From: Escherichia phage vB_EcoM_PTE-Eco09 | Sequence record: PQ306574.1 | Reading direction: 5' to 3' (one strand) | Length of the DNA: 64,000 nucleotides | Shown: one piece after another, positions 54,680 to 60,340 of the stretch | Layout: each line of letters begins with the position of its first letter | Numbering within the stretch: position 1 is the first letter of the stretch | Made by a program: the position numbers and the translations under genes | The notes under the pieces: model-generated | What the model saw: the letters and a program-made list of their open reading frames with translations, nothing else | Told to the model about the DNA's origin: nothing | Databases searched by the model: none

Positions 54680-54689
54680 GGTGATTATT

Positions 54690-55217
54690 ATGGAATGGGA
54701 AGTTGGTAAAACTTACAAGATTGAATGCGAAGCGTCGAAAGCCGAACTGACTAAATTTTCGTCGTCTATTAACAGATGTATTGTTGACTTGTTGGCTGGT
54801 CGCCCGTTTAGGGTAGAAGACCTTGACGATGATGGTGATGTTAGAGAAATTACTATTATTGGTAGTAATTTCGACTCTATGACGTTAAAAGAATCCCCTA
54901 TTGGCTGTTCCGGTGTGTGGTTTTGGTCGGGTGAGCGTCGTTTCTTTACCGAAGTTACTATTGAACCTAAGATTCCAGAATCGGAAGAAAAAGAAGAAGA
55001 CCTAACTTTAGAACGTCTGGGTCTGCTTATGGAAGCCTACGACATTCAGTTGATCGATAAGATGGGGTTACATAATAGCATTGCCAAAATTACTACCATA
55101 GAAGGTATTAAGAGCGTACTGGATGGTATGCCTAGCCGGATCGGTGCTATCCGCGAATACAAGCAAACGCGCGACCGTATGATCCAATTAGAATCACGTA
55201 TCAAAAATGAGAGATGA
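54690..55217 (+). CDS. Repeat-module family protein 1 (WEVGKTY module)
   Basis: MEWEVGKTYK..WFWSGERRFFTEV; GAGGTGA RBS. Confidence 0.5.
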   Translation: MEWEVGKTYKIECEASKAELTKFSSSINRCIVDLLAGRPFRVEDLDDDGDVREITIIGSNFDSMTLKESPIGCSGVWFWSGERRFFTEVTIEPKIPESEEKEEDLTLERLGLLMEAYDIQLIDKMGLHNSIAKITTIEGIKSVLDGMPSRIGAIREYKQTRDRMIQLESRIKNER

Positions 55218-55221
55218 TATT

Positions 55222-55707
55222 ATGAAATGGGAAGAAGGGAAGACATATAAGTTGGTTGGTGAGGACGAAAAGCGCATTTTGCGTGATTGTTGGCGTTACG
55301 AACAAAAACCTAATATTGATGGTGTGTTTACATATCTAGATAAACCATTTACTGTCGCTACGGTAGACCGTTGGGGTAATGTACGTTCAATCTATAATCA
55401 CGAAGGGGATTATATTAGTTCTATCGATGTTGGTGATAATATATGGTTTTCCGATGGCGACCGAGCGTGCTTCAAAGAAGTTTTATTGCCTGGTCATGAA
55501 TATGATCTAATAGACCTTCTCAAATTGGCGATGGATAATTATAAAATTCGCTTTGAATGCAAATCACATGCGGCTATCGGTGCTAATGCCTTGCGTCATA
55601 TCTCCAGTTTTGAAGAGTTGAAAGATTTTCTTGACAAAATGCCGGAAAGAGTGCAAGCTATACAGGAAGCAGAGAAAGCATTAAACGAACTTGATAAAAT
55701 CGGTTAA
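55222..55707 (+). CDS. Repeat-module family protein 2
   Basis: MKWEEGKTYK..WFSDGDRACFKEV; C-terminal helical tail similar to protein 1. Confidence 0.5.
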   Translation: MKWEEGKTYKLVGEDEKRILRDCWRYEQKPNIDGVFTYLDKPFTVATVDRWGNVRSIYNHEGDYISSIDVGDNIWFSDGDRACFKEVLLPGHEYDLIDLLKLAMDNYKIRFECKSHAAIGANALRHISSFEELKDFLDKMPERVQAIQEAEKALNELDKIG

Positions 55708-55719
55708 GGGGAATATATT

Positions 55720-56286
55720 ATGAAATGGGAAATTGGTAAAACTTACACCTGGAAAGATGAAAACGCTAAAACTGAGTTTATTACTAACGGAGAAGGTGTT
55801 CTTTCTCCACTTAACAGCGATATTAGTGCAGCTATTGGTGACAAGCCATTTACCATCATCGAGATCGATGGTAACGGTTGGATTGATGCAATAGAGCTAG
55901 ACGGTGTTTATCATACGGCGAAAACTGCTACAGGAAAAGACATTTGGACTGCAACATATTTCTTTAGTCCATTCGATCGAAAATTCTTTCGTGAAGTTGA
56001 AGAAGTTCCCCAGAAATGGGAAGTTGGTAAAACTTATACTTGGAAAGATGCGAATGCTATGACCGACTTCTGTCATTATGCTGAAAACGTATCTAATCTT
56101 AATTATGTTATTGCACGAGCAATAAATTATAGACCTTTTACTGTTAAAAATGTTCGTCCATGTGGGCAAATTGATGTAATTGAAATTGATGGTAAAGACC
56201 ATACTCTAATGAGCGCAACCGAAGATAGAGACCATAAGGAACTAGCTGGTTTATTGATTCTGATAGAAAATTCTTTCGTGAAGTAG
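55720..56286 (+). CDS. Repeat-module family protein 3 (two tandem modules; second module frameshifted at its end)
   Basis: MKWEIGKTYTWKDENA..FDRKFFREVEEV then KWEVGKTYTWKDANA..; the reading frame loses the module end about 56235-56250. Confidence 0.45.
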   Translation: MKWEIGKTYTWKDENAKTEFITNGEGVLSPLNSDISAAIGDKPFTIIEIDGNGWIDAIELDGVYHTAKTATGKDIWTATYFFSPFDRKFFREVEEVPQKWEVGKTYTWKDANAMTDFCHYAENVSNLNYVIARAINYRPFTVKNVRPCGQIDVIEIDGKDHTLMSATEDRDHKELAGLLILIENSFVK

Positions 56287-56291
56287 AAGAA

Positions 56292-56543
56292 TTGGAAGTT
56301 ATAACCACTGATTCTAAGATCGTTGGACAGTTGAAACGTCTGTTTAGTAGTCGTTACGGCCTGACAATGGTTAAATTTGGCGAAGCAAATGAAGGTAAAA
56401 CCTTTGAACGTTTCGATGATTTCATTGCGGCACTTGACAAGATGGATGAAATCATGCAAGATCGCCAGAAGATTAAAGACCTTCAAGAAGACATTAAACG
56501 TCGTGAAGTTGAATTTTTGATTGGTAAAGAGCGAGGTTGGTAA
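56292..56543 (+). pseudogene. Frame-shifted continuation of repeat-module protein 3 (probable disrupted gene segment)
   Basis: In the -1 frame from 56238 the DNA encodes GTSWFIDSDRKFFREVEEL.., homologous to the module end and continuing to 56543; there is no ATG start (the track start is TTG). Confidence 0.4.
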
Positions 56544-56544
56544 T

Positions 56545-57021
56545 ATGTTTGTTGTTGGTATGACCTATCAGTGGAAAAACGAACAAGCGCGTAAAGCATT
56601 TGCAACCAGTGATGCGAATCGTGTGATCTCCGAGTTTATCGGGGACCGTGCGTTTAAAGTCTTAGCTATTGATTCATCTAGTATACCTGAGTATGTTTCT
56701 GTGATTGAAATCGATGGTAAGGCTTACCAGTGTCCAGACAATGAAAAGGTTTATCTTTATGCTTGTAATTGGTTTTCGCCTACAGAAGATCAATATTTTA
56801 AAGTGGTATCAGCAGAGCTATCATCCGAAGCAATGATGCAACAATTCTTCAATAACTACGAAGTTTCTGTGCGTCGCTATGGCGAAGAAGAAGTGTTTAA
56901 AATCGATGATTACAATCAGTTTAAACGAGTATTCGCCACTAAGTTACAGCGTGACTTTGAACGTGACCAACGGATCAAGGAACTGGAAGAAGAACTAGAA
57001 AGATTAAAGGCTGAGAAATGA
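56545..57021 (+). CDS. Repeat-module family protein 4
   Basis: MFVVGMTYQWKNEQA..WFSPTEDQYFKVV; CGAGGTTGG RBS. Confidence 0.5.
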   Translation: MFVVGMTYQWKNEQARKAFATSDANRVISEFIGDRAFKVLAIDSSSIPEYVSVIEIDGKAYQCPDNEKVYLYACNWFSPTEDQYFKVVSAELSSEAMMQQFFNNYEVSVRRYGEEEVFKIDDYNQFKRVFATKLQRDFERDQRIKELEEELERLKAEK

Positions 57022-57287
57022 TCGAGATATACGGTATACCGAAAGAGGCTTATCATTGTTATGGTTGTATTAGTGCAATGAAGCTACTGGATGATCTGGG
57101 TATTCCGTATACACTTAAACCAGTATTCAAGCAGGTCGGGGTTGACATTATTCCCGACCGTGATATGATTGAAGAACTGGCGGGGAGGCTAAACTCAAAG
57201 AGCCTCCGGTTTGTATACCCCCAGATATTCATTGACAACGAGCACATTGGAGGCTATAAAGAACTGAGGGCGATTTATGATTATTGA
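57018..57287 (+). CDS. nrdH: Glutaredoxin-like protein (NrdH-like)
   Basis: CYGC redox motif near the N-terminus; IGGYKEL near the C-terminus; ATGA overlap with the upstream gene. Confidence 0.6.
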   Translation: MIEIYGIPKEAYHCYGCISAMKLLDDLGIPYTLKPVFKQVGVDIIPDRDMIEELAGRLNSKSLRFVYPQIFIDNEHIGGYKELRAIYDY

Positions 57288-57435
57288 GAATTTAGTTTCG
57301 GTGTTCATTATTGCTTTATTTGCTATAATGGCTTTACCGTTGAAGAAGTGTAAACACTGTAACGGAACAGGATTGCGTGGTGATGGGTGTTGCGCTCATT
57401 GTCACGGATCTGGTAAAGTAAGTATCATTAAGTAA
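57277..57435 (+). CDS. Small membrane-anchored DnaJ-type zinc-finger protein (52 aa)
   Basis: Hydrophobic N-terminus then CKHCNGTG..CAHCHGSG (two CxxCxGxG motifs); overlaps the nrdH stop; not in the ORF track. Confidence 0.4.
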   Translation: MIIENLVSVFIIALFAIMALPLKKCKHCNGTGLRGDGCCAHCHGSGKVSIIK

Positions 57436-57456
57436 TTCTTGAGTGAGGAATATATT

Positions 57457-57744
57457 ATGTTAGTACACAATGCAATCGCACACATGGTTTATTCTCGATT
57501 TGGGCGCATGGAAGAAATCAATATTACCGACGCGGATTTAGATCTGATGCAAGTCGAAGGCCAGACATATCTGAAAAATAACGGCGTGAATATCGGTAAA
57601 GCGCGTGTGCGTGAATTGTTGGTTGAATATATTCTCTCTGAATTTGGCATTAGTGCTTTCGGTGTGAAAGAGATTGCACCTAAGCGCGAAATTTCTGATA
57701 AAATGATCAAGAAATGCCAGAAAGCACGACGTAAGGGTTTCTAA
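57457..57744 (+). CDS. Hypothetical protein (95 aa)
   Basis: GTGAGGAATATATTATG leader. Confidence 0.5.
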   Translation: MLVHNAIAHMVYSRFGRMEEINITDADLDLMQVEGQTYLKNNGVNIGKARVRELLVEYILSEFGISAFGVKEIAPKREISDKMIKKCQKARRKGF

Positions 57745-59213
57745 TGAAGATTGAAACATTAATCGCATTGCCAGCGGCGGGGAAAACTGATGCTATACTT
57801 TCCCACGTCCTAGAGACAAAAGAAAAAGCGGTTATTGCTTCGCCATCTCGTGTTTTAAGTGAACAATCTTACAATAAGTTTAAAAGAATGGGCGGTCGTG
57901 CTGTCTTGATTGATAGCACAAGACTAAGAAGCCTTAAGACAGTGCAAGCGTCGATAATGCAATCAGTTAAAGACGGTGCTGATGTGATATTCATTACACA
58001 TACAGCGTTATCTAATATGGAACGTTCAAAAATGTTTGGTGATTATGCTCTTTACATTGATGAAGTTCCTCAACTGGTTGAATTTAATGAGTATCCGTTT
58101 AAGTCTAATCTTGAACTTATCACGAAGCATTGCGAACCAATCGCCGACGAATCGGAATGCCTACAGAACTTAGTTCTAAAAGACTCTGAGAAGGCCGCTA
58201 TCAAAGAAAAGATAGAAAGTGCGAAGGATGGTACTGATATGATCGATTCTTCTCTTAGAGGGCTTTATGAGGCGTTATTAGAGAAGAAAATCAACGTTAT
58301 GGTAAAACATAACGAAGGACACCGGAAGAATGGGTCGAAAATTGTTTTCTTGAACGATAACAAACACGGTACGTGGGGAGACTTTAAAAAGGTTACGATA
58401 GCATGTGCAAATCTCTTTGATACATATAGTGGGAAGTATCTACGATACTATGCAAATTGCGATTTTGTTCCGAGTGCGCTAGAATCCAGACTATATTTCA
58501 AAGAGTATAAAAATACAGATAGAGTTAATATCATCCTTATGACGGACTCTGAACGATGGTCGCGTCACCAGTCAGAAACAAACAATACCTTTGAACGTCT
58601 TGTTGATATGGTTAAAAATGAATGTGGCGATGACTTCATTTATACCGTGAATCGGGACCGAGAAGCGTGTACAAATGGTATTGGTGAGCGGATACCTTAC
58701 GGATCTTATGGTCTTAACTCTTACATTCATCATAAAAATGTTGCTGTGATGTTCAGCTTTAACCCTCAACGATGGGAGATTGATATTTTAAAAGGTCTTG
58801 CTAATAGTTGTGATCTCCCGACAAATGAGTTTTTGAAAGCGCGTCATGTGTCTGATTATCTGGAACCAGCATTTCAATTATGTTTGCGTTGTAACCTGAG
58901 AGACAACGAGAGCAAGGAGAATGTTAATCTATATGTTCCTGATTGGGCGTTGGTGGATTATCTAAAAACGTTTCTACCTAATGCCAATGTAATAACAGAC
59001 CGAATGATTCCGCTAGAATGTGGTGAGCGTAAAGGGCGAAAATCATTTAAAAAGATGTTCGACTTTAACGAGCAAGAGAATGCAAGATTTAACGGATTTA
59101 AGTACCGCATGAAGAAAAAAGGAAAAACTCTTGATCCGTCTGACGGTGAATCAGTAGAGATGGTTAGAGTGTGGATAACTAAGCAAAGAAAGTATAATGG
59201 TAATGGGGAATAG
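57744..59213 (+). CDS. P-loop NTPase (helicase/translocase-like) of unknown function
   Basis: Walker A-like ALPAAGKTDA, then VIASPSRVL and Walker B-like YIDEVPQ; 489 aa. Confidence 0.5.
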   Translation: MKIETLIALPAAGKTDAILSHVLETKEKAVIASPSRVLSEQSYNKFKRMGGRAVLIDSTRLRSLKTVQASIMQSVKDGADVIFITHTALSNMERSKMFGDYALYIDEVPQLVEFNEYPFKSNLELITKHCEPIADESECLQNLVLKDSEKAAIKEKIESAKDGTDMIDSSLRGLYEALLEKKINVMVKHNEGHRKNGSKIVFLNDNKHGTWGDFKKVTIACANLFDTYSGKYLRYYANCDFVPSALESRLYFKEYKNTDRVNIILMTDSERWSRHQSETNNTFERLVDMVKNECGDDFIYTVNRDREACTNGIGERIPYGSYGLNSYIHHKNVAVMFSFNPQRWEIDILKGLANSCDLPTNEFLKARHVSDYLEPAFQLCLRCNLRDNESKENVNLYVPDWALVDYLKTFLPNANVITDRMIPLECGERKGRKSFKKMFDFNEQENARFNGFKYRMKKKGKTLDPSDGESVEMVRVWITKQRKYNGNGE

Positions 59214-60293: not shown

Positions 60294-60315
60294 TGGCTTT
60301 ATAAGGGAGACTCTG

Positions 60316-60340
60316 AAAGGGGTTTCCCTTTTTATTTTTC
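60316..60340 (+). terminator. Hairpin plus U-run
   Basis: AAGGGG-TTT-CCCTTT followed by TTTATTTTTC. Confidence 0.4.

Follow-up and report, generated by a model that had tools for sequence, protein, structure and literature searches.

The window analysed here, 64,000 nucleotides of one strand of Escherichia phage vB_EcoM_PTE-Eco09 (PQ306574.1), belongs by its sequence matches to a Krischvirus, an RB49-like T4-type coliphage. Positions 56500–58500 are 100% identical to Escherichia phages kvi and FL20 and 99% identical to RB49, and this region is present in 58 records, all of them Krischvirus (T4-type Straboviridae). At 57277–57435 on the plus strand lies a mini-gene with an ATG start and 52 codons. 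Its translation, MIIENLVSVFIIALFAIMALPLKKCKHCNGTGLRGDGCCAHCHGSGKVSIIK, is exactly that of the open reading frame (ORF) singled out by an earlier reading of the letters (the original prediction), and it appears both in the ORF list and among public coding sequence (CDS) calls, as the orthologue of RB49p046 and kvi_187. The original prediction described the ORF as unannotated, which is true only of the ORF track then in use, because a CDS is called in the public records of RB49 (RB49p046, NP_891617.1, 'hypothetical protein'), kvi (kvi_187, VOG3798) and W115 (W115_25, 'putative membrane protein'). The BFVD entry of the protein, Q7Y3T0, reads 'uncharacterized protein'. As a hypothetical protein, the gene product already has a place in the PHROG and VOG families, and its cysteine motif is well known; searches of the literature by accession, family identifier and keyword found no study of the family.

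The mini-gene is preceded by an nrdH-like glutaredoxin gene of 89 amino acids (57018–57287, plus strand; Pfam Glutaredoxin 23.4 bits against a cutoff of 22.9; nrdH in RB49) and followed by gene 55.2 (57457–57744, plus strand; DUF7570, Pfam E = 1.1e-28). Its start overlaps the end of the glutaredoxin-like gene by 11 nt, in line with the overlap claimed originally. An exhaustive profile search with contig look-ups gave a set of syntenic relatives, the Krischvirus-like metagenomic contigs L004, L036–L039, L040 and L041. All of them share the overlap and a constant gene order: nrdH-like gene, mini-gene, 55.2/DUF7570, a 489-amino-acid DEAD-like gene and gene 55. A Shine–Dalgarno-like GAGGG, read from the sequence at 57266–57270 on the plus strand, lies 6 nt 5′ of the ATG within the 3′ end of nrdH; GAGGG or AAGGAG stands at the same place in L004, L036, L039, L040 and L041. 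The mini-gene is probably translationally coupled to nrdH. An apparently non-overlapping junction in contig L005 was rejected as a natural variant, as it stems from a frameshifted nrdH call on DNA identical to that of L004.

On a larger scale, the mini-gene sits in a same-strand, closely packed block that runs from nrdG to gene 55 and a-gt.4. The sole strong terminator-like hairpin of the block is found after a-gt.4 (60303–60330), and no T4-type late motif (TATAAATA) was found within about 18 kb of the mini-gene. By synteny with T4, the block would be a pre-replicative transcription unit. A near-consensus sigma-70 promoter-like site lies within nrdH (57142–57169; TTGACA, 16-nt spacer and TG-extended TATGAT, 11/12), some 110 nt before the mini-gene; close relatives have it unchanged, and L040 and L041 lack it. 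We do not claim it as a promoter, as it is conserved only where the coding sequence is conserved.

Several other features of this block deserve mention. Between nrdG and nrdH (54681–57021) lies a tandem array of paralogous genes (ORFs at 54681, 55207, 55720 and 56521), each starting with a W-(E/K)-x-GKTY-type motif. The third ORF contains an internal duplication, and the last has a strong match to phrog_5347 and weak ones to 'goF mRNA metabolism modulator' PHROGs. The array genes are among the most divergent between relatives, with 70–86% nucleotide identity. At about 56235 the window has one base fewer than kvi and RB49, which splits the homologue of the 274-amino-acid kvi_190/RB49p049 into 55720–56286 (188 amino acids) and 56292–56543 (83 amino acids); the homologue is also split in contig L038. 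The missing base marks either a genuine frameshift or pseudogene of this isolate, or else an error in sequencing. Downstream of 55.2, the 489-amino-acid DEAD/helicase-like gene (57744–59213; phrog_2467, with the Pfam DEAD match barely above threshold) is mosaic. Its nucleotide identity is about 69–70% in L004 and L036 versus 99% in L039, with flanks at 91–99%, a pattern that suggests allele exchange through recombination.

The comparison with diverged relatives argues that the ORF is a real small gene. Loss of the frame in relatives would, by the original prediction, have spoken against it; instead, no relative has an interrupted frame, and lengths differ by whole codons, through an insertion of 3 residues in the helix and extensions at the C terminus. 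Within the genus, dN/dS has no power as a test of selection, the 58 Krischvirus records all being at least 95% identical here, and because these isolates are too alike the diverged metagenomic contigs were used instead. Nei–Gojobori estimates for the window against L004, L036 and L039 gave dN/dS values of 0.20, 0.17 and 0.41 for the mini-gene, which are noisy given its approximately 33 synonymous sites, compared with 0.05, 0.09 and 0.12 for nrdH and 0.04, 0.05 and 0.02 for 55.2. Against L040 and L041 the synonymous sites of the mini-gene are saturated, and its dN/dS (0.88 and undefined, respectively) is not informative. By these estimates, the mini-gene is under purifying selection, but much weaker selection than its neighbours.

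The composition of the window points the same way. Across its six frames, the CxxCxGxG motifs at 57349 and 57391 are the only ones inside an ORF; a third match lies on the minus strand and is interrupted by a stop codon. In 200 base shuffles the mean number of single CxxCxGxG motifs was 0.225, and the double motif appeared in none. The ORF is very short, as an untranslated frame that arose by chance could be, but such an origin has hardly any probability left: the frame, the Shine–Dalgarno-like sequence and all eight motif residues are kept down to 26–47% identity in two phage lineages, the double motif is absent from every shuffle and dN/dS is below 1. The conservation data effectively refute a chance ORF, and the mini-gene is almost certainly real.

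The protein belongs to phrog_3931, which it matches significantly (E = 4.3e-10, residues 7–48 against profile positions 15–56 of 59). This family and VOG3798, both listed with function not assigned, take in proteins of RB49, Felix O1-like and Erwinia phages, and a few of their records bear motif-based names ('chaperone protein' and 'putative membrane protein'). With tblastn, full-length homologues, about 42% identical at 88% coverage, were found in more than 200 (about 220) Ounavirinae records, from Felixounavirus on E. coli and Salmonella and from Kolesnikvirus on Erwinia; these copies are likewise preceded by Shine–Dalgarno-like sequences. A profile search added metagenomic homologues of 49–60 amino acids with the same layout, and a diverged allele (P0056) joins the Krischvirus and Ounavirinae clades at E ≤ 1e-3. 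Across an alignment of 17 homologues, in which identity falls as low as 26%, no columns are invariant other than C25, C28, G30, G32, C39, C42, G44 and G46. Three frameshifted Felixounavirus copies (P0007, P0009 and P0010) and one with a truncated start (P0008) were left out of the family set. Frameshifted copies occur in several deposited Felixounavirus genomes or contigs (the records behind the three just named, for example phage phiWec177), with the frame switching after the helix so that the cysteine-rich knuckle is lost. They are either sequencing errors or natural loss-of-function alleles; if natural, the mini-gene would be dispensable in culture.

Other searches mostly retrieved the motif. 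A word-indexed protein search yielded few relatives, and a single-protein scan of IMG/VR gave two true orthologues, the other 24 loci being motif-only (phage DnaJ and unrelated Cys-rich proteins). Matches in Pseudomonas and Rhizobium obtained with tblastn were rejected as homologues, being motif-only as well. Many further database matches cover the knuckle alone, in DnaJ proteins, multi-repeat proteins, lambda-Q-like proteins and small phage Cys-rich proteins. The CxxCxGxG motif is common in phages, and it is the transmembrane (TM)-plus-knuckle architecture that defines the family. No counterpart was found in T4; neither rIIA.1, which is unrelated, nor 55.3–55.9 has this architecture. Not previously described are the combination of a membrane helix with half a DnaJ finger as a family design, its occurrence in two unrelated enterobacterial phage lineages and its fast, gene-bounded divergence.

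The surroundings of the gene differ between the two lineages. In Ounavirinae and related metagenomic lineages the order is NAMPT, an ORF of about 110 amino acids, mini-gene, (once) an HNH gene, rIIA and rIIB, and the ORF upstream of the mini-gene (phrog_4262/27920) has neither a thioredoxin fold nor a CxxC. The adjacency to redox genes that had been noted for this ORF applies to the Krischvirus-like phages, with nrdH next door, and fails in Ounavirinae, where no neighbour has a thioredoxin fold. The redox link is lineage-specific, because in Ounavirinae the homologues precede rIIA/rIIB and have no redox gene next to them. No partner gene is common to the Krischvirus-like and Ounavirinae loci, so the genomic context does not point to a target. 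HNH homing-endonuclease genes lie at varied points of the PRPP-synthetase/NAMPT/mini-gene/rIIA block in Ounavirinae-like contigs, for instance at 884–1378 in L042 (between mini-gene and rIIA) and at 1642–2136 in L043/L044.

Both structural claims of the original prediction, a membrane anchor and two DnaJ-type CxxCxGxG motifs, stood up to each computational test applied. Hydropathy and AlphaFold predict a single TM helix at about residues 4–22 (57286–57342, plus strand): the best 17-residue Kyte–Doolittle window covers residues 6–22 with a mean of 2.80, and the models place the helix at residues 2–19 or 3–18. Although their identity is low, each of the 17 aligned homologues has a hydrophobic segment at the corresponding place. 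One bilayer-spanning hydrophobic helix of conserved character is what a bitopic inner-membrane protein calls for. A signal peptide or lipoprotein was rejected, as there is no basic n-region and no lipobox.

Charges around the helix bear on its orientation. Lys23-Lys24 (57343–57348, plus strand) follow the helix as a positive-inside signal, with K26 and R34 within the next ten residues; in total, the N-flank of the window protein carries 0 positive and 1 negative charges and the 12-residue C-flank 4 positive and 0 negative ones. Throughout the Krischvirus clade, the N-flank (MIIE/N) is free of positive charge and carries a conserved Glu, and the 12 residues past the helix are +1 to +4; E. coli Felixounavirus and Erwinia members are +3 after the helix. 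By the positive-inside rule, the short N-terminal tail would be periplasmic and the knuckle cytoplasmic. This charge bias makes a cytoplasmic C terminus probable, a location that also suits a thiolate–zinc site. The topology should be read as a prediction, because in some Ounavirinae-like members (P0019, P0024 and P0040) the bias is slight or runs the other way, their C-flanks being net negative.

Past the helix, the first motif, C25-K-H-C28-N-G30-T-G32, occupies 57349–57372 and the second, C39-A-H-C42-H-G44-S-G46, occupies 57391–57414, both on the plus strand. Between them lies the six-residue linker LRGDGC (57373–57390, plus strand); the linker has 6 residues in 17 of the 19 tabulated family members and 7 in the other two. 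It includes a fifth, non-essential cysteine, C38; Pro takes its place in L041/P0067 and Val, Leu or Ile in others, and because it is replaced in several members it is not a ligand. The family profile matches the Cys-rich domain of E. coli DnaJ (1EXK) at E = 8.7e-9, in two stretches and without gaps to motifs 3–4. AlphaFold2 models show a compact beta-hairpin pair at residues 22–49 after the helix, with a mean pLDDT of 70.7 (7 sequences) or 74.5 (17 sequences) and of 78–84 in the knuckle. For both models, the best Foldseek match in the PDB is anti-TRAP (rmsd 0.7–0.8 Å over 26–29 columns, probability 0.99–1.0), with E-values of 0.18–0.29 that are not significant because the domain is tiny. The knuckle aligns with that of Bacillus licheniformis anti-TRAP without gaps and with identical spacing (3LCZ residues 11–35).

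Scans against curated families gave weaker matches. Pfam DnaJ_CXXCXGXG (PF00684) scored 14.6 bits (E = 0.041), below its gathering threshold of 32.7, and the NCBIfam RtpA model (NF058604) scored 12.8 bits for the window protein and 9.6–16.6 for homologues against a cutoff of 65. The best Pfam match, GRXCR1-2_C (PF23733; E = 0.0036, 17.6 bits against 26), covers 12 residues and a single motif, and a zf-AtTam37 match was also sub-threshold. The NCBIfam scan of the mini-protein returned sub-threshold matches only, PADLOC returned no match, and weak Gad1, defensin and cytochrome matches were judged to be chance. Because all curated family scores fall below threshold, we do not file the protein as a member of the DnaJ or anti-TRAP families.

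Judged by its sequence, the knuckle would work like the zinc unit of DnaJ and anti-TRAP, and the mini-protein very probably consists of a TM helix plus a single zinc knuckle. Anti-TRAP binds zinc through its two motifs and cannot oligomerize or function without it (PMC2896485), and the cysimiditides are a second two-motif precedent (preprint). Together with the invariance of C25, C28, C39 and C42, these precedents suggest that the mini-protein binds zinc. Neighbouring motifs in the DnaJ structure (1EXK) belong to different zinc centres, and because of this split a two-motif protein must either use the anti-TRAP mode, with one zinc per chain, or dimerize.

The mini-gene is also a hotspot of divergence. 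Nucleotide identity between the window and L039 is 93% in nrdH, 66% in the mini-gene, 92% in 55.2 and 96–99% in five downstream genes. In the same comparison, dN of the mini-gene is 13–40 times that of its neighbours nrdH and 55.2, and dS is 2–4 times theirs. Because dN and dS are both raised and the drop in identity is bounded by the gene, the pattern fits replacement by a distant allele through recombination, combined with relaxed or diversifying selection that has spared the zinc ligands and the hydrophobicity of the helix.

Taken together, these results allow us to propose, tentatively and with slightly less than even confidence, that the mini-protein is a bitopic inner-membrane protein with one cytoplasmic Zn(Cys)4 knuckle that serves as a tethered protein-binding module. 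The product of this presumably pre-replicative gene would be a 52-residue single-pass protein, with a 4–5-residue N-terminal tail carrying the conserved Glu in the periplasm, residues approximately 5–22 spanning the inner membrane and the C-terminal 30 residues on the cytoplasmic face. There, the two motifs would fold back on each other to hold one Zn2+ through C25, C28, C39 and C42, as in anti-TRAP and unlike in DnaJ, whose neighbouring motifs serve different zinc centres. Too small for catalysis, the protein might use the knuckle as a membrane-tethered module to capture, block or relocate a host or phage protein at the inner membrane. We offer this protein-binding role with some doubt, as a possibility based on the precedents of anti-TRAP, the DnaJ zinc centre and the plant protein FIP.

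Other readings of the locus have to be weighed against this proposal. The protein might face the other way, with its C terminus outside, as a signal anchor with a periplasmic, disulfide-bonded Cys-rich tail and a role such as excluding superinfecting phages or modifying the envelope. The envelope is where many small phage membrane proteins act, positive charge past the helix is missing from several Ounavirinae-like members and a few distant look-alikes (P0078 and P0143) have positively charged, signal-peptide-like N termini. We consider this orientation improbable, however: in Krischvirus and E. coli Felixounavirus members the N terminus is free of positive charge and the stretch past the helix is +3/+4, neither a lipobox nor a signal-peptidase site is present, invariant glycines in CxxCxGxG typify zinc knuckles and not disulfide knots, and the motif matches that of cytoplasmic zinc proteins. 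The position of the gene within the nrdG/nrdH nucleotide-reduction neighbourhood, with its start overlapping the nrdH stop in every Krischvirus-like relative, would suit a redox partner of the adjacent NrdH glutaredoxin whose cysteines cycle between thiol and disulfide. Plant DnaJ-like zinc-finger proteins with a TM anchor are reported to have protein-disulfide-isomerase activity. In another version, the pair could be a split form of the GRXCR1/2 architecture, a glutaredoxin domain followed by a Cys-rich C-terminal domain, as the sub-threshold top Pfam match to GRXCR1-2_C would have it. Both forms seem unlikely to us, and to the same degree, as the Ounavirinae homologue adjoins no thioredoxin-fold gene, the GRXCR1-2_C match spans only the 12 residues of one motif, the pattern and spacing of cysteines and glycines are those of structural zinc sites, and a non-synonymous rate 13–40 times that of nrdH and 55.2 in L039 is unexpected for an obligate NrdH partner. 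A GRXCR-like fusion of glutaredoxin and knuckle by frameshifting was considered separately and is unsupported; the mini-gene is in the +1 frame relative to nrdH and has its own conserved Shine–Dalgarno sequence and ATG, and an informal look at the nrdH/mini-gene junction noted no obvious slippery site.

The Ounavirinae arrangement suggests a different association. The RIIA/RIIB system is membrane-associated and is linked to protection against abortive infection and to membrane integrity, and the mini-protein could be an accessory factor of it whose gene was relocated in Krischvirus. The gene directly precedes rIIA–rIIB in Felixounavirus, Kolesnikvirus and three diverged metagenomic lineages, once with an HNH endonuclease gene inserted between them. 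All these rIIA-linked cases may, however, represent one broad phage lineage, and hence inherited synteny rather than functional linkage. In Krischvirus the place of the mini-gene, between nrdH and 55.2, is approximately 28 kb away from where rIIA usually lies, and T4, the model for rII, has no homologue, its rIIA.1 being unrelated. A part in the rII system therefore seems to us quite unlikely.

Starting again from the membrane-tethered protein-binding module, a bolder and rather speculative version would make the mini-protein a fast-evolving, anti-TRAP-like inhibitor of a host inner-membrane protein, exchanged horizontally between Krischvirus and Ounavirinae and diverging in an arms race. Its target might be a component of a defence system or, by analogy with FIP, a quality-control protease such as FtsH; we see a small chance for this version. 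Tiny early genes without known function are numerous in T4-like and Felix O1-like phages, and the mini-gene is one of the few with a recognizable, testable architecture. Its presence in two unrelated enterobacterial phage lineages and its unusually fast divergence make it a reasonable candidate for functional screening. Should the knuckle act as a membrane-tethered protein trap, bacterial viruses would have their first example of an anchor-plus-half-DnaJ-finger design otherwise seen in chloroplast proteins, and one more compact tool for host takeover or anti-defence. At present the mini-protein amounts to a well-described hypothetical protein and is no surprise.

Finally, the proposed design can be set beside known systems. 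Anti-TRAP (RtpA) of Bacillus (PDB 2BX9, 3LCZ and 3LD0) has 53 amino acids to the mini-protein's 52, and both carry two CxxCxGxG motifs with the same 6-residue linker; in anti-TRAP these form one zinc site, and the zinc site of the mini-protein is predicted by likeness to it. Anti-TRAP is soluble and its C-terminal helix drives trimer and dodecamer formation, whereas the mini-protein has an N-terminal TM helix instead, ends 6 residues past the second motif and is modelled without a helix there. To our knowledge, E. coli has no TRAP. Anti-TRAP binds and inhibits TRAP, acting purely through binding another protein (PMC2896485). The Cys-rich domain of DnaJ/Hsp40 uses the same motif, but in four repeats with two zinc centres rather than in two repeats, and DnaJ carries a J domain and substrate-binding domains; Pfam and NCBIfam scans of the mini-protein found no J domain, only the TM helix and the knuckle. 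Among plants, LQY1 and CYO1/SCO2 are, besides FIP, thylakoid membrane-anchored DnaJ-like zinc-finger proteins. The plant thylakoid proteins are eukaryotic and larger, have transit peptides and face another membrane, and the resemblance to them, which is at the level of the motif, may be convergent. FIP shares the logic of the mini-protein, a hydrophobic anchor followed by a C4 finger with two CxxCxGxG motifs and no J domain, and with this TM anchor and double motif it binds the membrane protease FtsH5 (PMC5915565).
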